From a virus (Duplodnaviria; Heunggongvirae; Uroviricota; Caudoviricetes): a DNA stretch of 64,000 nucleotides. Where the stretch lies: positions 183,178-247,177 of the IMG/VR virus record IMGVR_UViG_3300020048_006428; one strand, 5' to 3'. Under the pieces are notes generated by a model. The model worked only from the letters and a program-made list of their open reading frames with translations. It ran no database searches and had not been told where the DNA came from. Below are positions 2,457-62,326 of the stretch, piece after piece (position 1 is the first letter of the stretch; every line of letters begins with the position of its first letter). The position numbers were made by a program, and so were the translations under genes.

Positions 2457-3083
2457 ATGAAAATAAGAAAATTCAACGAAAGCTTTTCAAGTCAATCAGA
2501 AAATATTAGATCTTTGTTATTAACTAATAATAAATCTGATATAAAATTGGCTTTATATCTTCTTAAGTCTAATCCGGAATATATTGAAGAAGTATCAAAG
2601 GCTATACTTGATGAGTTCACTATTGAAAGGAAATATCAAACACTTGAAGAACTAATTGAAAATTCTTATAGTTCAGATATGATTTCATCGAATTTTATAG
2701 AAATTGGTGAATATATTAAAAACATAAAATTATGTAATTTAGACAAGTATGTTAATTTTATTATGAGTTTACAAATTGATGTAACTTTTACAGAATATCA
2801 AAAAAGTATCAACCTTCTTGCATTTGTTTCATTCAATGAAGTAAAAAGTGTTAATATATATAAAAACTATAAATTAAATTTAGATTCCACAAAAGAAGAA
2901 ATATTAGAAGAAATATACAATTTAATTGATAAACATTGGAATCCTGTTATTAAAGGCAAAAAAACGCTTATTAAATTAATAAATGAAATAACTAATGATG
3001 TAAACGAATTACCAAATCTTGATGAAGATGTGTATGATGAAGATTACGATGAAGATTACGATGATGAAGATGAAGATTTTTAA
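2457..3083 (+). CDS. hypothetical protein, MKIRKFNE leader family, acidic DE-rich C-terminal tail
   Basis: ORF with conserved upstream TTAATATATA motif; N-terminus MKIRKFNESF shared with paralogues; ends DEDYDEDYDDEDEDF. Confidence 0.5.
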   Translation: MKIRKFNESFSSQSENIRSLLLTNNKSDIKLALYLLKSNPEYIEEVSKAILDEFTIERKYQTLEELIENSYSSDMISSNFIEIGEYIKNIKLCNLDKYVNFIMSLQIDVTFTEYQKSINLLAFVSFNEVKSVNIYKNYKLNLDSTKEEILEEIYNLIDKHWNPVIKGKKTLIKLINEITNDVNELPNLDEDVYDEDYDEDYDDEDEDF

Positions 3084-3099
3084 TTTTAAACTTATCCAT

Positions 3100-3117
3100 T
3101 TTAATATATACTAAAAA
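3100..3117 (+). promoter_or_regulatory. TTTAATATATACTAAAAAA class-2 upstream motif
   Basis: 13 nt before ATG 3130. Confidence 0.45.
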
Positions 3118-3129
3118 AGTATTATTAAA

Positions 3130-3699
3130 ATGGATAAGTTTTCTAAGTTAAAGCCAAATAGTGATAAACCCACTTCTAAAAAAGAAAATGTCTTATTTCA
3201 AAATAAATATGTAAAATTAATTGAATTTGATGATTGGTCAATTATAACTGGAAAAGACTGTGTAATTTGCATTCCTTATCTTATAGAACAAAATAAGTTT
3301 ATAATTAGACAAGAATACATACCAACATATAAATATGCAGAAGGGCAAGATTTTCATTTAGCTTGTGTTGGTGGTGAAATAGAAGAAAGCGAAACACCAG
3401 AAGAATCATTAATTAGAGAATTACAAGAAGAAGCAGGAATTGTCCTAAGAGAAAACTTTAGAATCGAATTGGAAAAGCCATTATTCTTTAATAAAGGTTG
3501 TTCTGTAAAATGTTATTATTGTATAATAACATTAAATGAAAATGATTATCATGAAATAGTTCCACCAACAGATGGTTCTAAAGTAGAAAAAATGAGTCAA
3601 ACAGCTAAAATTGATGTAAAATATATAAATTCATTAAATACATCTGACATAACAACAGAATTTATGTTAGATAAACTTAGAAAACACTTAAACTTATAA
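3130..3699 (+). CDS. Nudix hydrolase
   Basis: Nudix box GGEIEESETPEESLIRELQEEAGI (Gx5Ex7REUxEExGU). Confidence 0.65.
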   Translation: MDKFSKLKPNSDKPTSKKENVLFQNKYVKLIEFDDWSIITGKDCVICIPYLIEQNKFIIRQEYIPTYKYAEGQDFHLACVGGEIEESETPEESLIRELQEEAGIVLRENFRIELEKPLFFNKGCSVKCYYCIITLNENDYHEIVPPTDGSKVEKMSQTAKIDVKYINSLNTSDITTEFMLDKLRKHLNL

Positions 3700-3701
3700 A
3701 A

Positions 3702-4265
3702 ATGTCAAATATTAAAGGATATACTATACCAAAACATAATAGAAAATATGGATTAAAAATTCTTTTTGCTTCAAATTATGAAATGCCATATTGGATAAGT
3801 TATGCTACAAGATTCTATAATAACGAAAAAGATAGAGATAAAGCTAAAAAAGAATTTGAAAGTAAATCAAATATATTTAGATATTATCATTTTATAGATT
3901 TTATTTTTGATAAAGATAAAATTGAAGAGTATGATTTAATTTATAATACAACTATTCATTTTACCGAAGAAAATCCAAATCCAATCAACAAAAAAATAAA
4001 AGATGGGTTTACAAATGATGAATATAAATTAATAATAGAAAGGCTTTATAAAAGCTTAAAAAGTGCTGATTTTTTTATAGAACACAACCCAAAATCAGAT
4101 AAATTCAAACATTATTATATTAGGATATGTGATTATTATAAATTTTTACCAATTAGCTTAATGCGAGTTAAATTAAATAATTGCTTTGATTGGATAACTA
4201 CATCATATAAAAAATCAGTAAATGATTATTTAAAAAAATTAAAAGAATTTGAATGCAATTTATAA
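3702..4265 (+). CDS. hypothetical protein
   Basis: long ORF tightly packed after upstream gene. Confidence 0.4.
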   Translation: MSNIKGYTIPKHNRKYGLKILFASNYEMPYWISYATRFYNNEKDRDKAKKEFESKSNIFRYYHFIDFIFDKDKIEEYDLIYNTTIHFTEENPNPINKKIKDGFTNDEYKLIIERLYKSLKSADFFIEHNPKSDKFKHYYIRICDYYKFLPISLMRVKLNNCFDWITTSYKKSVNDYLKKLKEFECNL

Positions 4266-4963
4266 AAAAATTTGAATCATTTGATGAACAAAATACTGAA
4301 ATAGATAATATAGTAAGATTGCTAAAATCAACTGATCCAGAATCAAATAATCTTGGTATAGTTCTTTCTAACAGTGGTAACTATGATATTAATTTAATAT
4401 CTAAAAAATATATTGAAGAATTTAAGATAAAAAACTACACTAAATTCAGCGATATTTTAAATGACCCTTCTGTTAAAATAAAAAAGGATTTTTTTAAATC
4501 TTTATCAAAAGAAGAAAGGAAATTTAGGGATTCAATTGATCAAGATGAATTACATGATGGTTCTTTTAAAATCGTATTTATTAATCTTGATGTTTTAGAT
4601 AGTTTCCATATTAATTTTAGATTTGATATATTTGTAAATAGGTATATTGATATTGATGGTGATATAAATGATGATTGTTATGAAAATAGTAGTAGTTTGT
4701 CAATACATTCTAATATGCATTTTAGATCCAAATACTTAAAAAAAGATACAAACCGACCAGTTGATACGGATAGATTCATAATAAAATTGAATGAATTTAG
4801 TCCAAATTCAAATGAATTAAAAATTAATAATTTGATGCCATTTATTAATGAAAAAATTAATACTTGGAATAACAAAATTTTAAAAAATGAAGATATAATA
4901 GCTGGTATTAGGTTATGTATTGAAGATAAAAATAATTTATTAAATGAAGATAAGAAGATTTAA
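4253..4963 (+). CDS. hypothetical protein, leader family (MQFIKKFESFDEQ)
   Basis: ORF; N-terminal KKFESF..E motif related to 2457/4944/12326 paralog leaders. Confidence 0.45.
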   Translation: MQFIKKFESFDEQNTEIDNIVRLLKSTDPESNNLGIVLSNSGNYDINLISKKYIEEFKIKNYTKFSDILNDPSVKIKKDFFKSLSKEERKFRDSIDQDELHDGSFKIVFINLDVLDSFHINFRFDIFVNRYIDIDGDINDDCYENSSSLSIHSNMHFRSKYLKKDTNRPVDTDRFIIKLNEFSPNSNELKINNLMPFINEKINTWNNKILKNEDIIAGIRLCIEDKNNLLNEDKKI

Positions 4964-5453
4964 CGAAAATGAAGATCCTACCAATAAAATCTTTGATTTA
5001 TTAGACTCACCAGATATTTCTAATAGAGAATTAGGATTTAAACTAATATCCACACAAGAAATAAAATCCAAAAAATTAACAAAGTTAATTGGTAAAACTT
5101 TCAATTCAGTATATATGAATACTGGAAAAGATGAAATCTATTTTTGTTCAAATGAGAAAAATTATATATTTTATCACGAACAAGATTGTTGTGAATCTGT
5201 TTGTGTTGAAGATATAGATGGCGATCTTGAAGATTTAGCTAATACACCAATAATAAATGCAGAAGAAATAACAAAAATAGATATAAATAATGATGAATGT
5301 GGTTGTTGGACATTCTATAAATTAGCTACATCAAAAGGATATGTAACAATAAGATGGTATGGTAGTTCAAATGGATATTATTCAGTTGCAGTATCATTAG
5401 ATGAATTCGTATATAAAAATAATAAAATAGAAATTTTATATAATTATTATTAG
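4944..5453 (+). CDS. hypothetical protein, leader family (MKIRRFNENEDP), Cys-rich
   Basis: ORF; N-terminus near-identical in pattern to 2457 ORF; CCESVCV..CGC cysteines. Confidence 0.45.
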   Translation: MKIRRFNENEDPTNKIFDLLDSPDISNRELGFKLISTQEIKSKKLTKLIGKTFNSVYMNTGKDEIYFCSNEKNYIFYHEQDCCESVCVEDIDGDLEDLANTPIINAEEITKIDINNDECGCWTFYKLATSKGYVTIRWYGSSNGYYSVAVSLDEFVYKNNKIEILYNYY

Positions 5454-5481
5454 TTATTATATATCATGATCTTGCACCTTT

Positions 5482-5520
5482 TTGACAAATTTTAAAAATT
5501 TTAAAATTTGTCAATTTTTA
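5482..5520 (+). terminator. rho-independent terminator hairpin
   Basis: perfect 12-bp inverted repeat ttgacaaatttt/aaaatttgtcaa followed by T-run. Confidence 0.6.
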
Positions 5521-5544
5521 TTTTGTTTTATTAAATATAATACT

Positions 5545-5552
5545 TATCTTTG
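5545..5552 (+). promoter_or_regulatory. Bacteroidota sigmaA-type -7 element TATCTTTG (TTTG at 5522-5525, 19 nt upstream)
   Basis: matches TTTG-N19-21-TAnnTTTG; ATG 18 nt downstream. Confidence 0.45.
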
Positions 5553-5569
5553 TAATTAAATCAGTAATA

Positions 5570-6577
5570 ATGAATATAAAGAATACATTTTTGAAATTGA
5601 CGAGTAAGACCTACCCATACGGATATGAAGAAGATTTGGAACATTTTTTACCAAATAAATTCAAAAAAGATTTAGGTGGTAATTATTTCTACAAATTAGG
5701 TGATAGTAAAACAGCATTTACTTGCCACTTAGACACAGCTTGTTTAGAACAAGTTAAAGTAAATCATATTATAGATGGTAATATGATCAGAACTAATGGT
5801 AAATCGATATTAGGTGCAGATGATAAAGCTGGTATGACAATACTTCTTTATATGATAGAACACAATGTTCCAGGTTTATATTGTTTTTTCATTGGTGAAG
5901 AAGTTGGTTGTATTGGTTCGGGTTATGCTTCCTTAGATAATTCATATAAAGTATACGATCGTATAATATCTTTCGATAGAAGAGGAACTACATCGGTTAT
6001 AACACACCAATCATCTAAACGTTGTTGTTCAGATGAATTTGCAAAATCCTTAGTAAAAGAATTTAATAAATATGACTTATCAATGATTGCAGATGACACT
6101 GGAATCTATACAGACTCTGCTGAATTTATAACAGTGATTTCTGAATGCACAAATATATCGGTTGGATATTATAATGAACATACATATAATGAATGTCAAG
6201 ATATTGTATACTTAGAAAAATTAGCAAAAGCAGTTGTAAGAATTGATTGGGAATCATTACCAACTAAAAGAAAGACCAATGTCATTGAATATAAAAGCAA
6301 ACCAAAATATAATGATGGTGTTGTTTATGATGGTTTTAAAAAGAAAAAGAATCGCTATAATGATAGATACAATGAATATGATGATTTTGTATACAAAGAA
6401 ATAAAAGAAATAAAATCATACAAACAACAAAACAAGCACTATTATGAACCATTTAAGCAAAGCTTATATGATGATAATATAACTAAACAAGAATTTGAAG
6501 AAATAAAAGATATGTATTTAGATTTAAATGATCCAGCTGATATGGATTATTATTTAAAAATTAAAGATTCACTTTAA
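5570..6577 (+). CDS. M42/M20-clan (MH) metallopeptidase-like protein
   Basis: GADDKAGMTILL and FFIGEEVGCIGS motifs typical of M42 glutamyl aminopeptidase/M20 family. Confidence 0.45.
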   Translation: MNIKNTFLKLTSKTYPYGYEEDLEHFLPNKFKKDLGGNYFYKLGDSKTAFTCHLDTACLEQVKVNHIIDGNMIRTNGKSILGADDKAGMTILLYMIEHNVPGLYCFFIGEEVGCIGSGYASLDNSYKVYDRIISFDRRGTTSVITHQSSKRCCSDEFAKSLVKEFNKYDLSMIADDTGIYTDSAEFITVISECTNISVGYYNEHTYNECQDIVYLEKLAKAVVRIDWESLPTKRKTNVIEYKSKPKYNDGVVYDGFKKKKNRYNDRYNEYDDFVYKEIKEIKSYKQQNKHYYEPFKQSLYDDNITKQEFEEIKDMYLDLNDPADMDYYLKIKDSL

Positions 6578-6789
6578 TCTCTAAATTTAGAAATTATATC
6601 ATCTTTTTTTATTAATTGGTCTGGTGCATTTTTTATTTGTGATTGTTCAATATTATGAGAAATTAAATATTTATTTCCTTTTTTTTCTAATATCTTTACT
6701 GGGACAATCATTTTATTATACCAATATTTAATCAGCACAATATCTTCTTCCTTATAAAAGGATTTATATTCTAAAATAAATTTCATCAT
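6574..6789 (-). CDS. small hypothetical protein
   Basis: only ORF in 230-nt gap between + strand genes; K-rich. Confidence 0.3.
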   Translation of the reverse strand: MMKFILEYKSFYKEEDIVLIKYWYNKMIVPVKILEKKGNKYLISHNIEQSQIKNAPDQLIKKDDIISKFRD

Positions 6790-6806
6790 AAATTATATAT
6801 TAAAAA

Positions 6807-7757
6807 ATGAATTCAAATTTTATAAAATTAAACAATATTTATGTAGATTTAAATCTGTATAATTTCATATCATCAACAAATAACATTATTTGTACATTAT
6901 TGATGAATACTGTTACAGAAGATGGTATATATTATTTGGAACCAACTGAAAAGCCTGATATGATTGGTTATATCCAAAAATCAAAAATAAAAGACTTTGA
7001 TAATTTCAATCCAAATGATTATAAAAAAACTACAATAAAGGTAGGAAGAATAGTTAGAAAACTATTTAATGATTTTATAATAAATCTTTATATCAGTGAT
7101 TCCAGAATAGAAGACTTTGTAAATCTATATAAGTCACAATTTGATACATCAGATTATGAACTTACAGTTGTAGAGGGTGAAGAAATAAGAATGTGGTATA
7201 ATGAAAATAATTACCATTTGGAAGATGATGAAAAAACCGGATCTCTTTGGAAATCTTGTATGCGCCAAGTAGAACGTCAAAAATTTTTAGATTTATATTG
7301 TATGAATGATAATATTAAACTACTTATAATGACAGTTAAATATTATGGTGAAACTAAATTAGTTGGTCGTGCGTTATTATGGGACGATGTTACTGTTCTA
7401 AGTGGTATTGAATCTAAAAGTGTTAACATTATGGATAGAATCTATTCCATTAACGAATCAAATGTTAATACTTTCAAAAAGTGGGCAATTGAAAACAAAT
7501 ACATCTATAAACTGGAACAAAATTCAAAAACAAGAAATTGTTTTGTAATTGATGGGAAATATAGAAATTTAAATTTGAAGCTTAACTTACAAAGATACAT
7601 TTTTAATTATTATCCATACTTAGATACATTTCCATACTTTAATTTATCAAATGGTGTCTGTTATAACACTGATTATTATGATGGGTATGAATATATATTA
7701 ACACATAGTGATGGTTCTTTAGGTGATAAAATATACGAAGACGAAGATGACTATTAA
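6807..7757 (+). CDS. hypothetical protein, acidic C-terminus (EDEDDY)
   Basis: long ORF; stop overlaps start of next gene. Confidence 0.45.
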   Translation: MNSNFIKLNNIYVDLNLYNFISSTNNIICTLLMNTVTEDGIYYLEPTEKPDMIGYIQKSKIKDFDNFNPNDYKKTTIKVGRIVRKLFNDFIINLYISDSRIEDFVNLYKSQFDTSDYELTVVEGEEIRMWYNENNYHLEDDEKTGSLWKSCMRQVERQKFLDLYCMNDNIKLLIMTVKYYGETKLVGRALLWDDVTVLSGIESKSVNIMDRIYSINESNVNTFKKWAIENKYIYKLEQNSKTRNCFVIDGKYRNLNLKLNLQRYIFNYYPYLDTFPYFNLSNGVCYNTDYYDGYEYILTHSDGSLGDKIYEDEDDY

Positions 7758-8127
7758 AGAAATTTGTAGACAATATAAAATTATAAATTATACCATAAAT
7801 CCAGATGGATCTATTGATGTAGATGGTGATGTTTATTTAGCATATAATAAATTAACAAAATTACCACTTAAATTCAATATAGTAAGTGGTTATTTTGATT
7901 GTTCTTATAATCAATTAACCAGTTTAGATGGTTGTCCTAATCATGTTGGTGGTCATTTTTATTGTGATAATAATGAATTAACCTATTTAGATGGCTGTCC
8001 ATCTTATATAGTTGGAAAATTTTATTGCTATGGTAATCCTCTACCACAAGAAGTAATAGATAATCCTATGGCAGAAATAAAGAGATTGAATAGAGAAAAG
8101 AAAATAGATATTTTACTAAACCAATAA
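7747..8127 (+). CDS. LRR-like repeat protein (LTSLDGCP / GxFYC 22-aa repeats), paralogue of 24214 and 50302
   Basis: start MTIKEICRQY overlaps upstream stop; repeats YNQLTSLDGCPNHVGGHFYCDNNELTYLDGCP; ends NPLPQEVIDNPMAEIKRLNREKK like 24214 ORF. Confidence 0.5.
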   Translation: MTIKEICRQYKIINYTINPDGSIDVDGDVYLAYNKLTKLPLKFNIVSGYFDCSYNQLTSLDGCPNHVGGHFYCDNNELTYLDGCPSYIVGKFYCYGNPLPQEVIDNPMAEIKRLNREKKIDILLNQ

Positions 8128-8129
8128 TT

Positions 8130-8735
8130 ATGATAAAAATAGGTCTTACAGGTAATTATTTTTCTGGTATGGATGATGTTATCAAAATTTATAATAAATT
8201 GAATATACCAGTATACAATGCCGATTTAGTAACTAAGTTTATACTAAACTATTCTGAGTTATCAATTAGGAAAATCAGAAAAACATTTGGTGATGTTTAT
8301 GATTATGGTTTATTAAATCTAAATAAATTTGATACGAATAATAGATTTGAATTGCTATTAAATCTTATAAATTCAGATTTATTGGAATCATATTATAGAT
8401 TCTTAGATAAGAATAAAGATGCAAAATATGTTATTTTTAAATCATCTATTTTATTTGAAAATAAATACAATAAATTGATGGATTATAATATAAATATATT
8501 TAAACCTTGTTCTGAAAGATATGACTTAGTTGATAAAATAACTTCAATTGATTCAACAACCCTTGAATTCATAATATCAAATGAATTATCTGAAGATTAT
8601 AAATGTAATAATTCAGATTTTATTATAAACAATTATAGTGAATATACTTCAAAAGAAATATATTCACTAGAAAATCAAGTTCTTAAAATTGACCAATCCT
8701 TATTATTTAACTTTAATAAGGAAGTCTTCACCTAA
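8130..8735 (+). CDS. dephospho-CoA kinase-like protein with degenerate P-loop
   Basis: MIKIGLTGNYFSGMDDVIKIYNKLNIPVYNADLV resembles CoaE start (IGLTGGIGSGKS..vidaD) but lacks GKS. Confidence 0.3.
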   Translation: MIKIGLTGNYFSGMDDVIKIYNKLNIPVYNADLVTKFILNYSELSIRKIRKTFGDVYDYGLLNLNKFDTNNRFELLLNLINSDLLESYYRFLDKNKDAKYVIFKSSILFENKYNKLMDYNINIFKPCSERYDLVDKITSIDSTTLEFIISNELSEDYKCNNSDFIINNYSEYTSKEIYSLENQVLKIDQSLLFNFNKEVFT

Positions 8736-8954
8736 ATCCACATAACTTTTGAAACAAGATAAAGCTTTTGATATAAGCATTTTATCCAACTCATTAAAAG
8801 TTTCACTATCATAACATACAGTTACTGCATTTACAATAATGTTTAATGCAGTTGTTGGGTCAATTTTATCAGAGTTGACTAATTCATTAATCTGATTAAT
8901 CTTTTCTTGTTGTTCAGGAGTAAATTGCGATAAATCTATTTCTTGTGTATTCAT
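8703..8954 (-). CDS. small hypothetical protein
   Basis: minus ORF filling gap; probable start MNTQEIDLSQF. Confidence 0.35.
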   Translation of the reverse strand: MNTQEIDLSQFTPEQQEKINQINELVNSDKIDPTTALNIIVNAVTVCYDSETFNELDKMLISKALSCFKSYVDLGEDFLIKVK

Positions 8955-8982
8955 TTTATTTTTTATATAAACTAATACACAA

Positions 8983-9711
8983 ATGTTCAATATAAAAACA
9001 AAAAACTATATGAAAGTAATTGCATTAAAAAATACAAAAAATCTTGTCAAAGGTGCTACATATGATGTTTATAGGCTATTTGCAGCTGGAAATTATAAGA
9101 GAGTTGTAATAAAATTGAATAAAGACAACAAAGTTAATTATGCTATAACTAATTTTAAACTATCTGATGGCAATCCAATACCTCTAATAGATTGGAAATC
9201 TGATGAAATAGAAGATAGACCAATTTATATAGATGAAAGGAATATAAAAATTGGAGATTACATAAAATACACTAGAAATTCTCATGTAGGTCTTATAAAT
9301 GGTTCTATATATAAGATTGAAGATATAAAAATATCTAAAAGAAGCACATATTCAAATTATAGTGATATATCCATAAAAATATATGGATCCAAAACATATT
9401 ATAAATCATATTCATTTGTAAAATGTTCTGATCAAGAATCAAGAGAAATACAACTTAAAAGTTTATTTGAAGAAGAAAGCGGATTCATGGTTGCTGATAA
9501 AAATGTAAATAAACTTTCTTTTTATTCAGAAGATGAACAAAAAGTTATATTGATAAATAGTTTGATGACATCTGCATTGGATAAAAAAAGAAATAATATG
9601 TCTGTGGTTGATTGGGCATTGAAAAAAGTAAACAACTATAATATTAAAGAAGAAGATTACAAGAATATTTTAGACCAAAATTTTAACACAATATTAGAAA
9701 TTTTTAAATAA
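8983..9711 (+). CDS. hypothetical protein
   Basis: long ORF. Confidence 0.4.
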   Translation: MFNIKTKNYMKVIALKNTKNLVKGATYDVYRLFAAGNYKRVVIKLNKDNKVNYAITNFKLSDGNPIPLIDWKSDEIEDRPIYIDERNIKIGDYIKYTRNSHVGLINGSIYKIEDIKISKRSTYSNYSDISIKIYGSKTYYKSYSFVKCSDQESREIQLKSLFEEESGFMVADKNVNKLSFYSEDEQKVILINSLMTSALDKKRNNMSVVDWALKKVNNYNIKEEDYKNILDQNFNTILEIFK

Positions 9712-9740
9712 TTTGATATATACACTAAAAATAGAACAAT

Positions 9741-10031
9741 ATGAAGCATATAAAAACACAAAAGCAATTAAATGAAGATAAAAAATTGAATTTATCTGGT
9801 GTTATAAATAGTAAAATAAAAATCAACGAAAATGTTGATGAAAATATAAAAGTAATTGAAGATAGTTATAATGACTATATCTCTATTGAAGATAAATATA
9901 AAGAAGCTATGGCAAAACAAATTGCTATGACAGCGAAGGCATTTATTAAAAACAGAGGTGGGAATTTAGAAGATTGGTTAAGAATTTTTGCTGATGAAGA
10001 TATAGTCATTTCTAAATTGAAAGCACTTTAA
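9741..10031 (+). CDS. small protein, MKHIKTQKQLNE leader family
   Basis: N-terminus MKHIKTQKQLNEDKKLNLSGV paralogous to 10773 and 12326. Confidence 0.45.
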   Translation: MKHIKTQKQLNEDKKLNLSGVINSKIKINENVDENIKVIEDSYNDYISIEDKYKEAMAKQIAMTAKAFIKNRGGNLEDWLRIFADEDIVISKLKAL

Positions 10032-10047
10032 TTTTTATTTTATTGTT

Positions 10048-10071
10048 TATAACGGACACAGATATATGTAG
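10048..10071 (+). promoter_or_regulatory. TAACGG...ATATATGTAG conserved upstream motif (copy 1)
   Basis: ttataacggacacagatatatgtag, ~25 nt before ATG 10096; UTR tttaacacaaaacttaaataat shared with other copies. Confidence 0.5.
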
Positions 10072-10095
10072 TTTTTAACACAAAACTTAAATAAT

Positions 10096-10263
10096 ATGAA
10101 TAAAGATAATAAGAATACGGAACTTGATAACGGAGATAAAAAATTACATGTATCTGATGTTATGTGTTGTGTTTGTGAGACACCAATTTCAAGACCAGAG
10201 GTAATGGTATATAAGGATGGAAAACCTTGTCATTATATATGTTTTATTGAACATAACACATAA
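10096..10263 (+). CDS. Cys-rich small protein (55 aa), paralogue of 61348
   Basis: MNKDNKNTELDNGDKKLHVSDVMCCVCE... vs MEEVNKNTELDNTDKKLHISGVSCRFCG at 61348; below track size cutoff. Confidence 0.4.
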   Translation: MNKDNKNTELDNGDKKLHVSDVMCCVCETPISRPEVMVYKDGKPCHYICFIEHNT

Positions 10264-10282
10264 CGGTTACAAATAAATTTAG
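10256..10282 (+). promoter_or_regulatory. TAACGGTT...AAATTTAG motif (copy 2)
   Basis: cataacacataacggttacaaataaatttag before ATG 10309. Confidence 0.4.
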
Positions 10283-10308
10283 TAAATTTCTTTTTAAATA
10301 AAAATTTT

Positions 10309-10578
10309 ATGGAATACAAAACATACGATAATACAATTTTAGTAGAAGGTAAAAAATATAGATGGTCTGGATATTGTGAATCTGGATTATACACATCAAC
10401 AAAATGGACAAATCTAAAATGTAAGATTAGAAAAATTGACGATGATAAAATTTTTATTTATGACTATGATGATGATAAGGAATGGATTTTTACAAATATG
10501 GAACTTCGTGAAAATAAAGTAACATTCAAAAAAAGAAATTTATTTAATTTATTTGTTGTTATATTCAGTGAAACGTAG
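10309..10578 (+). CDS. small hypothetical protein
   Basis: ORF after motif copy 2. Confidence 0.35.
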   Translation: MEYKTYDNTILVEGKKYRWSGYCESGLYTSTKWTNLKCKIRKIDDDKIFIYDYDDDKEWIFTNMELRENKVTFKKRNLFNLFVVIFSET

Positions 10579-10602
10579 TTTGTGAGGAATGAACAAATTG
10601 AA

Positions 10603-10627
10603 TATAACGGTTGGGTATATATGAAGT
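10603..10627 (+). promoter_or_regulatory. TAACGGTTGGGTATATATGAAG motif variant (copy 3)
   Basis: tataacggttgggtatatatgaagt. Confidence 0.35.
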
Positions 10628-10706
10628 ACCTTACCACAAAACTTTAAATTTAGTATAAACTTTATAATGGTAAATCGTCAAGTGAGACACAAACAGTAGT
10701 AATTGT

Positions 10707-10732
10707 TTATAACGTTTCTCAGATATATTTAG
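10707..10732 (+). promoter_or_regulatory. TAACG..CAGATATATTTAG motif (copy 4)
   Basis: ttataacgtttctcagatatatttag, directly followed by TTTAATATATATACTAAAA motif 10741-10760. Confidence 0.5.
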
Positions 10733-10740
10733 GTTTTCTT

Positions 10741-10760
10741 TTTAATATATATACTAAAAT
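10741..10760 (+). promoter_or_regulatory. TTTAATATATATACTAAAAT conserved upstream motif (class 2)
   Basis: same motif before ATGs at 2457, 3130, 12326, 25586. Confidence 0.45.
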
Positions 10761-10772
10761 AAAAATACGAAG

Positions 10773-11003
10773 ATGAAACATTTAAAAACACAAAAACAAT
10801 TGAACGAAGGACAAGAAAACTTGAATATATCTGAAAAAGATATTTTAAAATTAGTAGAAGAAACATTCGGTGAAGAAATTTCAACTTCTTGTGCTGAAAC
10901 AGTATTAGGACTTGAAAGTTGGATTGATGGTAAAGAAGAATTTATGGAAAAGTTAGCTGAGAAGTTGAAATTGTTATTTGATGAGAGTGACTTATCTAAA
11001 TAA
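10773..11003 (+). CDS. small protein, MKHLKTQKQLNE leader family
   Basis: N-terminus MKHLKTQKQLNEGQENLNISEKD. Confidence 0.45.
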   Translation: MKHLKTQKQLNEGQENLNISEKDILKLVEETFGEEISTSCAETVLGLESWIDGKEEFMEKLAEKLKLLFDESDLSK

Positions 11004-11014
11004 TTTTATGTTTG

Positions 11015-11065
11015 CTAACGTCTAATGATAAACAATCGTTTTAATGTTGTTTATCATTTGTTATA
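11015..11065 (+). repeat. CTAACG + 10-bp-stem hairpin element (tgataaacaa..ttgtttatca), copy 1 of 4
   Basis: tgctaacgtctaatgataaacaatcgttttaatgttgtttatcatttgtta; identical core at 12574, 62048, 62338. Confidence 0.6.
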
Positions 11066-11379
11066 CACAGTAATTTGTGTAGTGGATTTAACTTTTTTTG
11101 ATTTTATAATATTTATAGAGCGGAAGTAATTCTTTGGTTTAATGAAAATGATATAGATTACTTTAATATGACTGACTTGGATATGTATATCTACTATGAT
11201 GAACTTAATTAGAAGTAGGAATGTTGAATATACCACCGAACCTCACATTACATATACACCTTGTTATACACAGTACGGGTTATTAAGATAGAATGTTTGT
11301 TTGGAATACTAATAAAAACTTTTTAAAAATGTGTGGTGGGAAATTTAATTTTGAATATTTATATATAAACTAAAATATT

Positions 11380-11523
11380 ATGAGTAAAGAAATGAGAGAA
11401 CAAATAGACAGAGTAAAGAACTGGAAACAGTTTTTGAATGAAAATATTAGTAATGGTTATACTATACACTGGTATATCATTAAAACAATGGGAAAATGTT
11501 TGGAAAAACAAAAACTTAACTGA
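11380..11523 (+). pseudogene. truncated paralogue of 62436 gene (MSKEMREQ...WKQFLNE)
   Basis: MSKEMREQIDRVKNWKQFLNENISNGY.. 47 aa vs 128-aa MSKEMREQINNWKQFLNEG at 62436; upstream flank also similar. Confidence 0.35.
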
Positions 11524-11679
11524 TAGAGAAACTAATGTGACTGATGATAAGTCGTTTGCGTTTGATTACTCATATGATTTTACAACAGGTGAATATGATG
11601 AGTAGCCGAACACCGAACTTGATTAGAAGTAGAAACTTAAATATTAACAACTGCAATAGTTTGAAACGCCTAACGGCTA

Positions 11680-11982
11680 TTGCTTATACACTTTGTTAGG
11701 CAATCGTTTATTATGAGAAGACTAATTTATAAAGAAGACCATCAAATGTATTATTTTATTCCAGTTGTTTTTGAAACTGACTCTAAAATCACAGTAGAAA
11801 AAATGGAAAAAATAAGTTATGAACCTGCTGGTGCTGGTAGAATGAGTACTGGTTTTAATGAGTTTAAAAAACTTATGGAGGATTACGGATATACTGTTAA
11901 TGAAATAGAAAGATTGGAACAAAATTCTACTCCAGAAAATAATACATTAGAAATAGTAATAGGCGCAACGGGTAACTATTAA
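11680..11982 (+). CDS. small hypothetical protein
   Basis: ORF; probable start MRRLIYKED at 11710. Confidence 0.3.
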   Translation: MLIHFVRQSFIMRRLIYKEDHQMYYFIPVVFETDSKITVEKMEKISYEPAGAGRMSTGFNEFKKLMEDYGYTVNEIERLEQNSTPENNTLEIVIGATGNY

Positions 11983-12055
11983 ATGTTGCCTAACGTTTTG
12001 CGTATATACGCAGTGCTGACGAAAACTTAAATTGAAACACAAAACTTGAAAATAT

Positions 12056-12253
12056 ATGAAAATATGGATTATTAAAAAACTTAAAGCATTGCGTATATAC
12101 GCTGTTATGTGTGGTTTTATTACACATAAGCAATATGTGGATAGTTATAAAAAATATGTAGAAAGCTCGACAGATGAAGAAGTAGGTACATTTGATTGGT
12201 TCGTTTACTATTGTAAGAAAAACAAAGAATTTAGAATTGAGCATCTTGCTTAA
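12056..12253 (+). CDS. small hypothetical protein
   Basis: ORF; contains gcgtatatacgc palindrome also present at 12003. Confidence 0.3.
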   Translation: MKIWIIKKLKALRIYAVMCGFITHKQYVDSYKKYVESSTDEEVGTFDWFVYYCKKNKEFRIEHLA

Positions 12254-12260
12254 AATCACA

Positions 12261-12285
12261 CATAACGGTTCTCAGATATATTTAG
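12261..12285 (+). promoter_or_regulatory. TAACGGTTCTCAGATATATTTAG motif (copy 5) followed by class-2 motif 12295-12312
   Basis: cataacggttctcagatatatttag ... taatttaatatatactaaaaaa before ATG 12326. Confidence 0.5.
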
Positions 12286-12325
12286 GTTTTCTAATTTAAT
12301 ATATACTAAAAAATAATTTAATAAT

Positions 12326-12547
12326 ATGAAAGATTTAAAACACATTAAAAGATTTAACGAGTCAGAAGAAAACTTGAATATATCTGATGTTAGTGATAGT
12401 AGAAAAAAACTACTTGAGTTAGTAAAATGTATGGATAGTAATATGGAAATGTTTAATAAAACAGGTGATGTTAATGATGTAGGGTATGTAGTTAGTGATA
12501 TTCGAGATATTATACATGAGATTGTTAAAATTATTGATGTGAAATAG
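12326..12547 (+). CDS. small protein, leader family (MKDLKHIKRFNESEENLNISDVSD)
   Basis: N-terminal motif shared with 9741/10773/2457 ORFs. Confidence 0.45.
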   Translation: MKDLKHIKRFNESEENLNISDVSDSRKKLLELVKCMDSNMEMFNKTGDVNDVGYVVSDIRDIIHEIVKIIDVK

Positions 12548-12560: not shown

Positions 12561-12612
12561 CACTAACGGAACATGATAAACAATCGTTTTAATGTTGTTT
12601 ATCATTTGTTAT
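12561..12612 (+). repeat. CTAACGG + hairpin element, copy 2 of 4
   Basis: cactaacggaacatgataaacaatcgttttaatgttgtttatcatttgttat. Confidence 0.6.
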
Positions 12613-13061: not shown

Positions 13062-13086
13062 TATAACGGTTTGCAGCTATATTTAG
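13062..13086 (+). promoter_or_regulatory. TAACGGTTTGCAGCTATATTTAG motif (copy 6)
   Basis: identical 25-mer at 63581-63605. Confidence 0.5.
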
Positions 13087-13146
13087 TTGCGGACTTTGAA
13101 AACGAAAACTTTAAATAACCACAAAATTATGTTAGAAAACGAAAAT

Positions 13147-13362
13147 ATGAATGAAGCAGAAACTCCGCAATTGAATATAGGTGCTGTTATGTGTGCGTTG
13201 CCTTGTCCTTTTTGTGGCTCGGATATTGAAATTGAAACAACAACTTTTGGAGATAGCATGACTGATTTTTTTAGAGTAAACTGCAAACAAAAAGGACACT
13301 CACTTGATTGGTGGGAAGAAGATAAAAATAAAGCTATTGCTGTTTGGAACGAGAGGCAATGA
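13147..13362 (+). CDS. Lar-family-like zinc-ribbon protein (restriction alleviation-like), copy A
   Basis: ALPCPFCGSD...CKQKGH; near-identical to 63660 ORF; start chosen by paralogue (MNEAETPQLNIGAVMC). Confidence 0.45.
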   Translation: MNEAETPQLNIGAVMCALPCPFCGSDIEIETTTFGDSMTDFFRVNCKQKGHSLDWWEEDKNKAIAVWNERQ

Positions 13363-13422
13363 CACATAACTATAATATATCAACACCTATTACTAAAACC
13401 TCAACAAACAATCATTTAGACA

Positions 13423-14223
13423 ATGAAAAAAACAGATTACTACGAAATTTGTAATCAAAAATTGAAGTATTTAAATTATTCAGATAGGACAGTAAAGTCC
13501 TATCTGTTTTATATAAAACAATTTTTTGATGATATTAAAATATCACCAACAAGATTAACTTCTAAGGATTTCCAATCCTATTTAGATAACTATAACTTCA
13601 CTTCAGTTTCTCAACAGAATCAAGTAATTAACGCAATCCGATTTTTGTATAAATTCGGATTAAATAAAAAATATGATAAGGTTAGTTTTAAAAGACCTAA
13701 ATCAGAAAAGAAATTACCAAAGGTTATTGATGGAAATTTTATTAAGGAACAACTATCAAAAATTGAAAATATAAAACATAAGGCAATACTAACTTTAACC
13801 TATTCCGTTGGACTTAGAGTATCAGAAGTAATTAACCTTAAAATTGAAAATCTTGATTCTAAACGAATGATTATACATATCAAAAATGCCAAAGGTAGAA
13901 AAGATAGAATAGTTCCGCTGTCTAAAACTGTTTTGGAATTATTAAGGATATATTGGAAAGAATATAAACCAAAGGAATATCTTTTCAATGGTCAAAAAAC
14001 TTCAAAATATAGCTATACTAGTTGTAATAAAATCGTTAAAAAGTACTTAGGTGAAGAATATCATATACATCAATTAAGACATTCTTGTTTCACCAATTTA
14101 TTAGAAGTCGGTACTGATTTACGTATAATCCAAAAAATTGCAGGACATTCTAATGTTAAAACAACCGAAATTTATACACACGTTTCAAATCAATTATTAA
14201 GTAAAGTAAACTTACCTATTTAG
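13423..14223 (+). CDS. tyrosine site-specific recombinase (phage integrase family, XerC/D-size)
   Basis: R (LRVSE), K (KGRKDR), HQLRHS (HxxR), H (AGHSN) and catalytic Y (EIYTHV) all present. Confidence 0.8.
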   Translation: MKKTDYYEICNQKLKYLNYSDRTVKSYLFYIKQFFDDIKISPTRLTSKDFQSYLDNYNFTSVSQQNQVINAIRFLYKFGLNKKYDKVSFKRPKSEKKLPKVIDGNFIKEQLSKIENIKHKAILTLTYSVGLRVSEVINLKIENLDSKRMIIHIKNAKGRKDRIVPLSKTVLELLRIYWKEYKPKEYLFNGQKTSKYSYTSCNKIVKKYLGEEYHIHQLRHSCFTNLLEVGTDLRIIQKIAGHSNVKTTEIYTHVSNQLLSKVNLPI

Positions 14224-51491: not shown

Positions 51492-52898
51492 TTACTTACC
51501 TTCTCCAAATTCTTCGCCTTCTTCGCTTGTATTAGCACTTACTGTTTCAGTAGATGTTTGTTTAATATTTTCAGCATACATAGTAATGCTTTTTACGGAC
51601 TCAGCAACTGTTTTGGCCGGATTGCTATTATCCAAATACGTAGAAAGTTTTGTTATTGCTTCATTACTTGTTTTTTCATCTAAGAAATGTTTAGAAAATT
51701 TAGAAAAGTTTTCTTTGAAATCTTCTACTATTTTAGTATTTATTTGTTTTAAAGCTTCACTATCCAATTCCCCAGTTTTAGAAAATGTTGATATATAACC
51801 ATCTATTTCAGCATCGGTCATTATTTTAAATTCTAACATTTTTGATATTCCATCAAATATACCCGGAAATTGCTTCAAATCATCATTATACAACTGCTTA
51901 GGTATGAATTGTTGGTGTAACGCAATTATATTAGATTTAATTAGTTTTTTTGCTTCATCTGGTTTACCTATTATTTTTTCAAATTGGATATATGTTTCCT
52001 TACCTCTGTTTGCAGAAGCTAATGATTGCGAAACCAACAAATCAAATTGAACATCTTGTGACTTATACCCATTGGCTTCTAACCATGCTTTATATTTTGT
52101 CTTATTCTTAATATTAAACTTTTCTTTTGCTTTTTGATTAAACTTTTCTTTTGTTAATGATGCACATTCAAATAAAATATCTATTGTAGTAAGACTACTT
52201 GCAATTGAACCTGGTTTAAAATCAAAATCAAAGTATAAATTTTCTCGGTTTGCTTCAAAATCAACTATACCAGTGTCTATTTCATTGCCTTTAGAACCAG
52301 CTTGTGCTAATCTTTTTAAAGCTAATAAACCATTACCAGATGCAGTTATTTTTTGATTATCATCAGTTAAGCTAAAAACAAGTCTTCCATCATTTACTAT
52401 TTCTTTATCACCAACTTTAAGATAATCTGTAACATCATTTCCGCTTTTATCCACTTTAAGTTCAATGTTTGGTTTTTTAGTAGGTCTAAAACAATCTAAG
52501 ATTTTTGATTGGTCTTTTTTAAAAGCTGCTTTTAATTCACCTACTGTTGTTTCATAGAATCTTGAATCTGGTCCATATCCATTTCCATTAGTCCATTTTA
52601 ATCCAAAATCGTCTAATGCATCATTATAACAATCTGTTCCAGATGTGGATCCCATAATAATTTTTGCTTGTATAGGATCTACATTAGTTGGTTTAGTTCC
52701 ACTTGTCATCCATCTATAAATACCATATGCTCCTAATCCTACTAGACCAGCTACACCAACAGCAAGGGAAATTGGTGCAAATCCTATTCCGGATGCTACA
52801 CCAACAGCTTTAACAACAACTGGAACAGCATATGCAACACTAAATTCTTCATTTATCTTATCTTCTTTAAACTTATTATAATTTTTAATATATTTCAT
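51492..52898 (-). CDS. hypothetical protein with N-terminal glycine-zipper membrane segment; higher GC
   Basis: AVPVVVKAVGVASGIGFAPISLAVGVAGLVGLGAYGIY; codon usage differs from bulk. Confidence 0.45.
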   Translation of the reverse strand: MKYIKNYNKFKEDKINEEFSVAYAVPVVVKAVGVASGIGFAPISLAVGVAGLVGLGAYGIYRWMTSGTKPTNVDPIQAKIIMGSTSGTDCYNDALDDFGLKWTNGNGYGPDSRFYETTVGELKAAFKKDQSKILDCFRPTKKPNIELKVDKSGNDVTDYLKVGDKEIVNDGRLVFSLTDDNQKITASGNGLLALKRLAQAGSKGNEIDTGIVDFEANRENLYFDFDFKPGSIASSLTTIDILFECASLTKEKFNQKAKEKFNIKNKTKYKAWLEANGYKSQDVQFDLLVSQSLASANRGKETYIQFEKIIGKPDEAKKLIKSNIIALHQQFIPKQLYNDDLKQFPGIFDGISKMLEFKIMTDAEIDGYISTFSKTGELDSEALKQINTKIVEDFKENFSKFSKHFLDEKTSNEAITKLSTYLDNSNPAKTVAESVKSITMYAENIKQTSTETVSANTSEEGEEFGEGK

Positions 52899-55920: not shown

Positions 55921-56523
55921 TTATAAATTAACTGCATTATAGCTATCAATTGATTTTAATTCATTGATTCTATTTTCATTCATTTTTAATCTAGATGTAT
56001 TATATTTTTTACTATACATCCTTGCACCTTTTATCTGGGTAATCAATTTTATTTTATAATTATCTTTATTTATCCTATCTATTCCTAGAATTTCGCTATA
56101 ATTAGTTGTGTCATTTAATAATTCAACACATGGTCTATCTTTTCTACTCCAATCTAATTTATTAATATATTCAGCTAATTTACCACCTAAACTTACATGA
56201 AGAATATCCAGTCCTTCATCTAATGTTGGATTGACAATGATATCTTTTTTTGCATAATCTGGATCAGATTTTCTATATAACCTTTCTAACCAATGTTCAG
56301 TTGGTTCAATTGTTAATTTTATCTTTCCTAATTCGTAATAATCTTTATTAGGACTGTTGTATATAGATGTTATCTTATTACTAATATAATTTCTTGTTAC
56401 ATATGGAACAAAAACCTTAGCTTTAACTTCTTCCAATAATATTTCTTCAACAAGAAGATAATCTATCTCAAATAACTGAATATTATCTTCAGATATGAAT
56501 TCTGTAAATTTAAATATTTTCAT
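55921..56523 (-). CDS. hypothetical protein
   Basis: ORF. Confidence 0.4.
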   Translation of the reverse strand: MKIFKFTEFISEDNIQLFEIDYLLVEEILLEEVKAKVFVPYVTRNYISNKITSIYNSPNKDYYELGKIKLTIEPTEHWLERLYRKSDPDYAKKDIIVNPTLDEGLDILHVSLGGKLAEYINKLDWSRKDRPCVELLNDTTNYSEILGIDRINKDNYKIKLITQIKGARMYSKKYNTSRLKMNENRINELKSIDSYNAVNL

Positions 56524-61287: not shown

Positions 61288-61312
61288 ATATAACGGTTAC
61301 AGATATATGTAG
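61288..61312 (+). promoter_or_regulatory. TAACGGTTACAGATATATGTAG motif (copy 7)
   Basis: before ATG 61348 with shared UTR. Confidence 0.5.
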
Positions 61313-61347
61313 TTTTTTCTTAAATTGAAATAATAAACTTAAATAAT

Positions 61348-61569
61348 ATGGAAGAAGTAAATAAGAACACAGAACTTGATAACACAGATAAAAAATTACA
61401 TATATCTGGTGTTAGTTGTCGTTTTTGTGGAAGTTCTAATTTTGATGAATGTTATATTGACACATTTAAAATACATTCACCACGATTCGATTATGACGTA
61501 GAAAGGAGAATTGAAAAAACATTCAAAATTAGAATATGTGAGTGTGGTGTTATTGTTAAAAAAAAATGA
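61348..61569 (+). CDS. Cys-rich small protein, paralogue of 10096
   Basis: MEEVNKNTELDNTDKKLHISGVSCRFCGSSNFDEC. Confidence 0.45.
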   Translation: MEEVNKNTELDNTDKKLHISGVSCRFCGSSNFDECYIDTFKIHSPRFDYDVERRIEKTFKIRICECGVIVKKK

Positions 61570-61571
61570 CA

Positions 61572-61595
61572 ACTAACGGTTGGGAATATATTTAG
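61572..61595 (+). promoter_or_regulatory. TAACGGTTGGGAATATATTTAG motif (copy 8)
   Basis: followed by ttttttaacacaaaacttaaatagaatg. Confidence 0.5.
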
Positions 61596-61625
61596 TATTA
61601 TTTTTTAACACAAAACTTAAATAGA

Positions 61626-61781
61626 ATGAAAGAAGAAATTTTAGAAACAAAACGTAGATTGTATTTGTTATTAATGAAATTAGATGAAGATACAATAACT
61701 GATAATGAAGTAGAAATAATGTTCTTATTATCAAAAGACGAACAAATACAAACGTTATTTGAAAACGCAAAGAAAAAATAA
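61626..61781 (+). CDS. small hypothetical protein (51 aa)
   Basis: MKEEILETKRRLYLLLMKLDEDTITDNEVEIMFLL..; below track cutoff. Confidence 0.3.
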   Translation: MKEEILETKRRLYLLLMKLDEDTITDNEVEIMFLLSKDEQIQTLFENAKKK

Positions 61782-61821
61782 TATTGAATATATTCTTTGT
61801 TATGTTCTCGTTTTAATGGAA

Positions 61822-61846
61822 CATAACGATACTCAGATATATGTAG
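61822..61846 (+). promoter_or_regulatory. TAACGATACTCAGATATATGTAG motif (copy 9)
   Basis: followed by ttttaacacaaaatttaataaaatgg. Confidence 0.5.
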
Positions 61847-61868
61847 TTTTAACACAAAATTTAATAAA

Positions 61869-62030: not shown

Positions 62031-62033
62031 TTA

Positions 62034-62086
62034 CAACTAACGTCCGATGATAAACAATCGTTTTAATGTTGTTTATCATTTGTTAG
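62034..62086 (+). repeat. CTAACG + hairpin element, copy 3 of 4
   Basis: caactaacgtccgatgataaacaatcgttttaatgttgtttatcatttgtta. Confidence 0.6.
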
Positions 62087-62125
62087 GTTTAGTTAAATTA
62101 TTGTTTTACAAATAAAATATAGAAT

Positions 62126-62320: not shown

Positions 62321-62326
62321 TTGAAC

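Follow-up and report, generated by a model that had tools for sequence, protein, structure and literature searches.

The stretch of DNA analysed here, hereafter called the window, comprises 64,000 nucleotides (nt) of the IMG/VR virus record IMGVR_UViG_3300020048_006428 (positions 183,178 to 247,177), and several of its genes share a short N-terminal leader of the type MK-I-K-F-N-E. This leader is probably a portable 5' module which, within two arrays of small genes, is part of a strand-specific hairpin site tied to a tyrosine recombinase and would be exchanged in an integron-like manner. The hairpin sites have a uniform architecture, lie overwhelmingly on one strand, covary in their stems and are linked to the recombinase gene; modules have their boundaries at the site cores, and some leader families are constrained at the level of the peptide.

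As proposed here, the 5' module would comprise a TAATATATA-like promoter box, a short A-rich untranslated region (UTR), an ATG, 12-25 codons specifying a basic peptide with a hydrophobic-N-E end, and a polar linker, and it would be joined to unrelated bodies in this clade of Bacteroidota-type megaphages. By analogy with an integron integrase working on attC, the recombinase would swap cassettes at the TAAC/GTTA cores of folded sites, and a body landing behind such a site would gain a promoter, a start codon and a leader, which would produce the pattern of a same leader followed by an unrelated rest.

Hairpin sites, cassettes and the neighbouring recombinase

Sites were detected as a stem-loop separated by short spacers from a TAAC on its left and a GTTA on its right. 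The cassette arrays as a whole span 9.7-13.4 kb and 61.3-63.9 kb of the window, the first one finishing with a Lar-family gene, a hairpin-less half-site and the recombinase gene. The window holds 15 such sites, all on the + strand and in two arrays, A (10050-13189) and B (61291-63708), and when 82 related viral loci are added, 344 sites lie on the recombinase strand versus 11 on the opposite one. By comparison, 881 kb around bacterial relatives of the recombinase contain 13 versus 11 sites on the two strands, which amounts to background and indicates that no arrays are present there. Among 312 non-redundant sites, TAAC and GTTA are invariant within the flanks ATTnnnnnTAAC and GTTAnnnnnAGT, the left spacer measures 4-5 nt (most commonly GGTT) and the right one is a single T in 232 cases, giving the consensus ATTnnnnnTAAC, GGTT(n) - stem - loop - stem - T - GTTAnnnnnAGT. 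The stems of 13-25 bp are highly varied (176 distinct 5'-stem 10-mers among the 312 sites), and the loops range from 9 to ~380 nt, with classes of 9 nt (CGTTTTAAT, n = 43), 33-50, 65-80 and >240 nt. CGTTTTAAT is the commonest short loop (43/47 across related loci). The compact sites of the window (11016-11063, 12564-12611, 62038-62085, 62328-62375 and also 61799-61827) have this near-invariant loop in common despite different stems (ATGATAAACAA versus GTTATGTTC), and the loop may be a protein-recognition element.

Fifty sites were aligned without gaps, and their stem is paired at 98.6%, a percentage whose weight is lessened by its being partly circular, given that the detector itself demands complementarity; 11 of the 13 pairs show double changes. 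The measures independent of this circularity are the strand bias, the bacterial control, and the covariation and variety of pair types, with a covariation score of 0.526 against 0.179 in shuffles (0/500 reach 0.526) and 0.09-0.16 in slid controls. DNA folding yields the expected hairpins and favours the + strand. In addition, isolated stem mismatches are far more often G.T than A.C (138 versus 34), which designates the sense strand, or its RNA, as the folded species. When the canonical attC consensus (RYYYAAC/GTTRRRY) is applied, the AAC and GTT triplets alone fit.

The recombinase encoded next to array A has 266 residues, and an alignment to XerA shows its catalytic R, H-x-x-R, H and Y. Its closest solved relative is the archaeal XerA of Pyrococcus (4a8e, E = 3e-40), its best NCBIfam model is the XerA-type 'tyrosine recombinase/integron integrase', and relatives with 50-86% identity are found on 80 IMG/VR contigs (up to 464 kb, 23-38% GC). 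Over the last 4 kb before the recombinase start, the sites per kb amount to 22, 22, 39 and 43, with almost none beyond (28 loci, both flanks), and 23 of 26 loci have three or more sites (up to 19) directly beside this gene. Besides, a half-site nnnTAAC-TAnnATATAT, or a close variant of it, stands ahead of the homologous recombinase gene in most of 33 related loci, so that a simple site of the attI type and an array lie together beside the recombinase gene, as in integrons, albeit in an orientation unlike that of class 1 integrons. Array B terminates in a TAAC-TAGAATATAT half-site, the same as that of array A, followed by a short open reading frame (ORF) that reads MGNYYEIQNKN up to its stop codon (63886-64000) and resembles the N-terminus of the recombinase (..DYYEICNQK..); up to the window end, no second recombinase copy is detectable past this array.

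A cassette body is defined here as the sequence from the GTTA of one site to the TAAC of the next one, with a median length of 294 nt. The two ends of a same body are complementary over 11.6 nt on average, with 181 of 254 bodies reaching at least 10 nt, whereas the average is 5.5 nt between the flanks of a single hairpin and 5.6 nt in random pairings. This is exactly what is predicted for a circular cassette of the integron type, whose site is completed by its own ends once circular. In array A, the body start of gene 9741 (9801-9826) is in this way complementary to 10028-10053. The 227 cassette proteins (median 89 residues) fall into 207 clusters, and the recognisable cargo, which looks like counter-defence genes, includes three N6_N4 DNA methylases, MT-A70, Lar, the Thoeris inhibitor Tad6 (E = 4.6e-41), GNAT, a PARP-like protein, YopX, an M78 peptidase and DUF7448.

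The link between sites and leaders is a physical one. In 94 cases, an ORF begins at an ATG within the site and extends across the 3' arm and the GTT triplet of the GTTA core as far as the body. Leader-type sites have a promoter-like box, an ATG and the leader in their loop; their 3' arm reads (E)NLNISD, after which GTT of the core specifies Val in the same frame. Upstream of genes 12326, 10773, 10096, 13147, 61348, 61869 and 63660 lies a conserved element, ATAACGGTTnnCAGATATATnTAGTTTT, whose core is the reverse complement of the in-ORF codons for L(N/H)IS(D/G). The module TAAC-G..CAGATATATTTAGGTTTTC-TTTTTAATATATAC..ATG..GAAAACTTGAATATATCTGAT-GTTA encodes MKDLKHIKRFNESEENLNISDV, the leader of gene 12326, and eleven copies of this type of leader hairpin are conserved from TAAC to GTTA while their flanks are unrelated on both sides. 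Among 18 bodies behind ..NLNISDV-type leaders, a single homologous pair is found, the two members of which have different leaders, so that one leader module stands ahead of 17 unrelated bodies. In the same line, blocks of 98-100% identity between contigs stop at TAAC-G or GTTA. Finally, two methylase cassettes have conserved N-terminal motifs ahead of any internal Met, implying that their translation must start at the ATG of the loop.

From the position of the recombinase gene, the design of the sites, the complementary cassette ends and a few breakpoints, we infer that cassettes are exchanged, with the recombinase as the enzyme acting at these sites, and likewise which strand it would use. 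Several observations weigh against such an interpretation. The recombinase falls below every NCBIfam cutoff, the integron-integrase models scoring 146 and 93 bits, with two separate pieces for each model, where 265 and 435 would be required. The extra segment of IntI4 is missing, since the Vibrio IntI4 (2a3v) aligns at query residues 18-172 and 214-262 with ~48 IntI4 residues skipped. The read-through ORFs are in the GTT frame at 75 non-redundant sites, and in other frames at 48. Only seven pairs of bodies are homologous at the DNA level, so that the breakpoint evidence rests on few cases, and these seven pairs are likewise too few to decide whether bodies travel with their upstream or their downstream hairpins. 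Identity boundaries occur at TAAC as well as at GTTA, so that the crossover may lie at either core, and neither recombination products nor excised circles or empty sites were seen. The excess of G.T mismatches also fits an RNA-level role. Lastly, the leader genes 2457, 4253 and 4944 are devoid of hairpin sites, and the array mechanism thus leaves their acquisition of a leader unexplained.

The leader peptide and competing explanations

The six leader ORFs reported in the initial annotation are all present with the starts and N-termini given there, and further members are found in the window at 55921-56523(-), 51492-52898(-), 36994-37446, 11380-11523 and 62436-62822. The idea that the downstream sequences are unrelated has to be qualified: genes 2457, 4253 and 4944 have in common a whole module of ~45 N-terminal residues, made of the leader and an 'LLxSxDxxNxxL' helix pair, and are therefore not unrelated past the leader, and genes 9741, 10773 and 12326 share '(E)NLN(I/L)S' directly after it. 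Similarly, genomic context separates the members better than the proposed split into KFNE and QLNE forms, the former three genes being free-standing and the latter three lying in a cassette array with the leader within a hairpin site. A conserved promoter or UTR extending at the DNA level into the ORFs, which had been put forward as an alternative to a protein-level signal, applies to three of the six genes and does not extend to the whole peptide motif.

Within the window, 6/99 called genes have the pattern [KR][FL][NE][ES] among their first 15 residues, compared to an expectation of 0.23 derived from 15-residue windows inside the same proteins; this ~26-fold enrichment is post hoc, since the pattern was taken from the same data. 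The motif was found again in a 43-kb stretch (31% GC) of the uncultured phage LR756502, where 7/60 genes have an MKHL[KR]KFNE-like start (MKHLKKFN.., MKHLRKFNE.., MSIKKFENF.., MRIKRFFELF..), as well as, in a broader form, in 1731 genes of related IMG/VR loci, where [KRQ].?(hydrophobic)(hydrophobic)?NE is present in the first 25 residues of 4.0% of genes versus 1.3% of internal windows (p = 3e-16). The broad N-E pattern is seen in 11% of the 207 cassette-protein clusters. A genomic GC content of 23% would make K, I, F, N and E the cheapest residues, so that MK-I-K-F-N-E could arise by itself, and indeed every leader residue has AT-rich codons and MK is the commonest start. This compositional explanation is nevertheless so improbable that it can be set aside, given the enrichment over internal windows of the same proteins and the occurrence of the motif in relatives with 31-38% GC, yet not in the first 55 genes of the Tenacibaculum phage PTm5, whose GC content is also 31%. 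The same absence led to the rejection of the leader as a general trait of Bacteroidota jumbo phages. In 4/5 window leaders (2472-2477, 4959-4964, 10806-10811, 12353-12358), the Asn of F/L-N-E is encoded by the rare codon AAC, which accounts for 15% of the window Asn codons, a peculiarity not reproduced in the LR756502 leaders.

When compared with Pfam and PHROGs, the leader proteins match DUF7448 and GNAT only, and the leader itself has no match. DUF7448 has >2000 homologues, and most of the 120 listed measure 113-135 residues and start at the domain itself; among the sequences inspected, the ~46 extra residues MRYLRKFNESEDFTDKIFSLIDSEDESNRELGFELIKSQ are found only in the window cluster P0001 and in P0002, which is 60% identical to it. 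As judged from these sequences, the leader of gene 4944 appears to be an add-on to its DUF7448 domain. In the AlphaFold2 model of this protein, residues 1-12 form an unstructured tail ahead of two helices, a linker and a beta domain; in that of the 62436 protein, a leader helix (residues 3-17, low confidence) precedes a disordered linker. The leaders are thus predicted to lie exposed at the N-terminus, with a flexible polar linker behind them. A signal peptide or lipoprotein signal was considered and rejected, as a hydrophobic core is missing and the Cys residues that follow 'SDV' are part of zinc ribbons.

Two leader families, MSKEMREQI..K.[FW]KQF[LVI]NE and ..FIKTTIREFLNE, occur both in loops and at body starts. 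In terms of constraint, these two families (b and c) keep the peptide at nearly saturated synonymous sites, with synonymous (pS) values of 0.7-0.8 and non-synonymous (pN) values of 0.12-0.2, the latter being depressed by the choice of these families on their peptide pattern; their codons vary accordingly (Ser AGC/AGT/TCA, Arg AGA/CGA/CGT, Leu TTG/TTA). Family a is conserved at the DNA level (pS 0.18). In the loop-encoded half of the hairpin leaders, the DNA varies and basic-F-x-E-(F/S) persists (RFNESE, SFEEFK, TLEEFK, SFKEFN). Conversely, the NLNISDV half of the array leaders follows the stem, LNIS, LHIS and LNIG each going with compensating changes in the 5' arm, and equivalent hairpin sites on the same kinds of cassettes have quite different leaders (MEEVNKNTELDNTDKKLHISDV, M..PQLNIGAV). 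Taken together, these comparisons show that the leader peptide itself is in part under selection; our best guess is that it serves as a common docking or targeting tag, capsid targeting being one candidate. As regards the promoter box, a leader is found in 21% of the genes that have a TAATATATA-like box no more than 50 nt ahead of them versus 3.7% of the others, also when genes starting in hairpins are excluded, and the box also lies ahead of the large virion-module gene at 24095. The leader as a mere promoter part was rejected, because the TAATATATA box precedes many leaderless genes and both 4253 and 4944 are without it.

The main structural rival to exchange by the recombinase is a role of the hairpins in RNA (RNase III-type processing, mRNA stabilisation or translational control), the cassettes being shuffled by homologous recombination in the manner of the promoter early stem-loops (PeSLs) and the recombinase being unrelated to them. 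PeSLs are promoter and stem-loop cassettes with shuffling and mini-circles in hyperplastic regions (PMC2839356), and the hairpins studied here enclose UTRs, start codons or entire ORFs and have G.T wobbles as their leading sense-strand mismatch. This explanation is nonetheless judged quite unlikely in the light of the arrays being tied to a DNA recombinase gene and ending in a matching half-site, and of the invariant TAAC/GTTA, the unequal spacers (4-5 nt versus 1 nt) and the cassette-specific complementary ends, which are features of folded recombination sites (PMC8946536). Besides, a Rfam scan of array A gave nothing at E up to 1, and no U-run follows the stems, which are hence not intrinsic terminators. 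Another possibility, held to be rather unlikely, is that the leader peptide is functionless and that the module only standardises the start of transcription and translation of any ORF behind it, by means of an unstructured, A-rich start region in a Bacteroidota host poor in Shine-Dalgarno sequences. The joint movement of promoter box, short A-rich UTR and leader, the DNA-level conservation of family a and the several unrelated leader types filling the same position would agree with it, as opposed to the peptide kept by families b and c (chosen, as said, by peptide pattern), the Leu codons of the leaders, CTA or CTT in LR756502 versus TTA in the window, and the recurrence of the hydrophobic-N-E end in otherwise different leader families.

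In phage T4, the capsid-targeting sequence reads MKTYQEFIAE, cleavage follows the rule (L/I)-x-E, and Alt is a packaged protein. The initial annotation had proposed that the leader is a capsid-targeting or propeptide signal of this type. The leader would then dock to the prohead core and be cut after hydrophobic-N-E by the prohead protease, with the cargo being injected together with the DNA; this is a possibility to be kept in mind, although on balance it seems somewhat unlikely. An F/L/V/I-N-E end followed by a polar linker is present in many unrelated proteins, is exposed or disordered in the AlphaFold2 models and is constrained as a peptide in families b and c, and the T4 sequences are likewise N-terminal propeptides of 10-20 residues, removed by gp21 and common to Alt and otherwise unrelated internal proteins (PMC5694885). 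Moreover, the PARP-like and GNAT cargo, which recalls T4 Alt, has hydrophobic-N-E leaders while the methylase and Lar cassettes have other ones, and the TAATATATA-like box is common to leader genes and the virion-module gene at 24095, an association that may, however, reflect the common descent of one 5' module rather than co-regulation. What makes capsid targeting doubtful is that the NLNISDV half of the array leaders is set by a nucleic-acid stem, that other leader types sit on equivalent hairpin sites, that the product of 51492-52898(-) has a hydrophobic stretch right behind its leader, that the cultured relative PTm5 has no leader in the genes covered, and that no prohead-protease family is among the Pfam families listed for the window ORFs of at least 60 residues. 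Capsid targeting is compatible with the cassette architecture, in which case the arrays would be a bank of injectable effectors. Considered by itself, the integron-like half, namely an Xer-like recombinase capturing and shuffling counter-defence cassettes via folded sites that supply promoter, ATG and leader, is one towards which we lean slightly. The conjunction of both halves, in which a phage-borne integron and a hydrophobic-N-E capsid-targeting propeptide would form an exchangeable effector bank packaged and injected ahead of the DNA, appears very doubtful.

Features of the window and its setting

Table 1. Leader genes, hairpin sites and related features of the window, with positions counted from its first letter
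Feature	Position	Strand	Remarks
Leader gene, free-standing	2457..3083	+	MKIRKFNE-SF...; helix pair common with 4253 and 4944; TAATATATA-like box at 2432
Leader gene, free-standing	4253..4963	+	MQFIKKFESFDE...; same ~45-residue N-terminal module
DUF7448 protein with ~46-residue N-terminal module	4944..5453	+	MKIRRFNENEDP plus two helices
First gene of array A	9741..10031	+	MKHIKTQKQLNED..KLNLSGV; 3' arm and GTTA (9801-9804) only, no 5' arm upstream
Hairpin site	10050..10162	+	TAAC-GGACA, 18-nt stem, 62-nt loop with ATG of gene 10096, 3' arm = LHVSD, AT, GTTA
Hairpin site, 27-nt stem	10261..10561	+	ORF 10309 begins in the 234-nt loop, crosses 3' arm and GTTA, stops at 10578
Degenerate leader hairpin of gene 10773 (MKHLKTQKQLNEGQENLNIS)	10710..10835	+	both arms and TAATATATA box kept; GTTA lost
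Cassette gene, QLNE leader	10773..11003	+
Compact hairpin site	11016..11063	+	conserved loop CGTTTTAAT
Leader gene, MSKEMREQI..NWKQFLNE type	11380..11605	+	frameshift-split relative to homologue L036:3575
Hairpin site	11991..12107	+	loop holds ATG of gene 12056
Leader hairpin	12263..12392	+	TAAC-GGTTC, 21-nt stem; loop = TAATATATAC box, UTR, ATG, MKDLKHIKRFNESE; 3' arm ENLNISD, T, GTTA (Val)
Cassette gene, hairpin-encoded leader fused to own body	12326..12547	+	body start 12389-12408 complementary to 12548-12567
Compact hairpin site	12564..12611	+
Hairpin site of Lar-family cassette	13064..13189	+	3' arm encodes QLNIGA
Hairpin-less half-site TAAC-TATAATATAT	13367..13380	+	43 nt before recombinase ATG
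Tyrosine recombinase, Xer/IntI-like	13423..14223	+	Phage_integrase and Phage_int_SAM_4 domains
Leader gene	51492..52898	-	MKYIKNYNKFKED, then hydrophobic, apparently membrane-spanning stretch; two upstream TAATATATAC boxes
Leader gene, free-standing	55921..56523	-	MKIFKFTEFISED; TAATATATA box 13 nt upstream
Array B	61291..63708	+	eight hairpin sites
Array B sites	61291-61414, 61574-61802, 61824-61941, 62038-62085, 62328-62375, 62837-62915, 63151-63373, 63583-63708	+
Array B genes	62436-62822; 63660-63881; 63886-63889		leader gene; second Lar cassette; terminal half-site TAAC

Some of these features deserve further comment. In a tblastn comparison, the leader gene 11380-11605 (MSKEMREQIDRVKNWKQFLNE..) switches from frame 2 to frame 3 near residue 30 relative to its intact homologue, and this split may correspond to a pseudogene, a sequencing error or a programmed shift. 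The product of 56542-57192(-) (MARILVACEESQAITKAF..), which adjoins the leader gene 55921-56523(-), resembles by eye a cassette protein of a related array (MQTELQ..VLVGCEESQTITKEL..); if real, this likeness would mean that genes swap between array and non-array places. Outside the arrays too, the adjacent genes 54178-54480 and 54569-54904 have identical first 29 residues (MKPTIEERSKFFKKNSSKIEKIVNDKFID) and then diverge totally, being another case of a same head on different bodies.

The window has a GC content of 22-32% (~25% overall) and contains eight transfer RNA (tRNA) genes, genes for an S1-domain protein, SmpB and a sigma-70-like factor, and two very large virion-module proteins. One of its products, of 1064 residues (20901-24095(-)), is 63% identical to proteins of the uncultured phages LR756502 (642 kb) and LR745206 (635 kb); its remoter kin are from Lak megaphages, the Sphingomonas phage PAU and Tenacibaculum jumbo phages, and the PTm5 homologues adjoin neck and head-completion genes. 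The core genes of the window are syntenic with LR756502, whereas the six leader genes have no orthologue in the syntenic region, where only core genes are kept, which places the present finding in a plastic region of a megaphage. The host probably belongs to the Bacteroidota, since the closest bacterial relatives of the recombinase are from that phylum. No near-identical match to the region was found among 50,697 phage records.

Among the other genes, the S1-domain protein (14342-15427(-)), SmpB (30737-31201) and the tRNA cluster (32823-34308; Lys, Phe x2, Ser x4, Trp) form a translation-takeover set typical of huge phages. A piece of a Cas12f/TnpB-like protein (TNB domain) is encoded at 27847-28140, as are two homing endonucleases of the GIY-YIG type at 26642-27340(-) and 39805-40614. 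Small paralogous genes stand in tandem at 41872-43127 (four) and 43427-43818 (two), with ..LKEYINTKY.. and MDFLFLQFYIKKKYNQS.. as their respective motifs. Finally, 7747-8127 and 24214-24651 encode paralogous repeat proteins, leucine-rich-repeat-like by eye (MTI.EIC..Y.I.NYTINPD.SI.VDG.V...), one adjoining the leader region and the other the virion-module genes.

Comparison with known systems

With the T4 capsid-targeting sequences and the T-even internal-protein genes, the leader genes have in common a short N-terminal leader on unrelated small proteins, a location in plastic regions and a hydrophobic-x-E end. They differ in that the motif of the present phages has an invariant Asn as its second-to-last residue and that part of the array leader is constrained by a stem; at this length, no homology to the T4 sequence can be demonstrated. 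A folded single strand forms the attP site of the CTX phage, and this phage and the pdif modules of Acinetobacter plasmids likewise rely on a recombinase of the Xer family and on short inverted arms around a central region. These modules, however, use the host XerC/D and 28-bp dif-like sites, and have no arrays of dozens of hairpin sites with expression signals. As to the PeSLs of T4-type phages (PMC2839356, PMC4122927), they are repeated modules of a promoter and a stem-loop which, like the promoter-like boxes and stem-loops repeated here, flank small non-essential ORFs in hyperplastic regions and mark shuffling breakpoints. Their stem-loops are terminators, though, and exchange proceeds by homologous recombination between repeats, in contrast to the invariant TAAC/GTTA cores, the enclosed start codon, the T-GTTA in place of a U-run and the dedicated tyrosine recombinase of the present system.

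Integrons are known as bacterial devices, and a full-text search of the available literature found no description of integron-like cassette arrays in phages. If the proposed exchange is true, it would add a second, independent lineage of recombinases working on folded sites and would help to account for the hundreds of small orphan genes of huge phages. A recombination site doubling as an expression and leader module would be unusual and a potential tool, and the unexplained shared N-terminus would become testable as a defined ~20-residue peptide with hundreds of natural fusion partners.

As in integrons, a tyrosine recombinase gene stands at one end of an array of short and highly diverse cassettes (207 clusters for 227 cassettes), the ends of each cassette are complementary to each other and a hairpin-less site lies beside the recombinase gene. 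The likeness extends, especially for the sedentary chromosomal integrons with their homogeneous attC sites, to the ..AAC/GTT.. cores, the imperfect palindrome, the unpaired asymmetric spacer and the variable terminal loop. As for attC, whose features were taken from PMC8946536, structure rather than sequence is kept and the sites are strand-specific. The system thus resembles an integron, yet departs from it on two defining points: the Xer-like phage recombinase is without the extra IntI4 segment, and the cassettes are not promoterless, promoter-like boxes and start codons being found inside site loops or bodies, with the leader in the loop and the ORF crossing the 3' arm and the core. Further differences are that the recombinase gene is downstream of the array and co-oriented with it, that the R stems reach up to 12 bp, that the G.T pattern points to folding of the sense strand, and that the bearer is a megaphage with counter-defence-like cargo. 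According to recent work (bioRxiv 10.1101/2024.07.02.601686), the arrays of chromosomal integrons store cassettes for defence against phages; if the reading favoured here is true, this arms race would have its mirror image in a phage array of methylases, Lar, an anti-Thoeris protein and ADP-ribosyltransferase-like enzymes.

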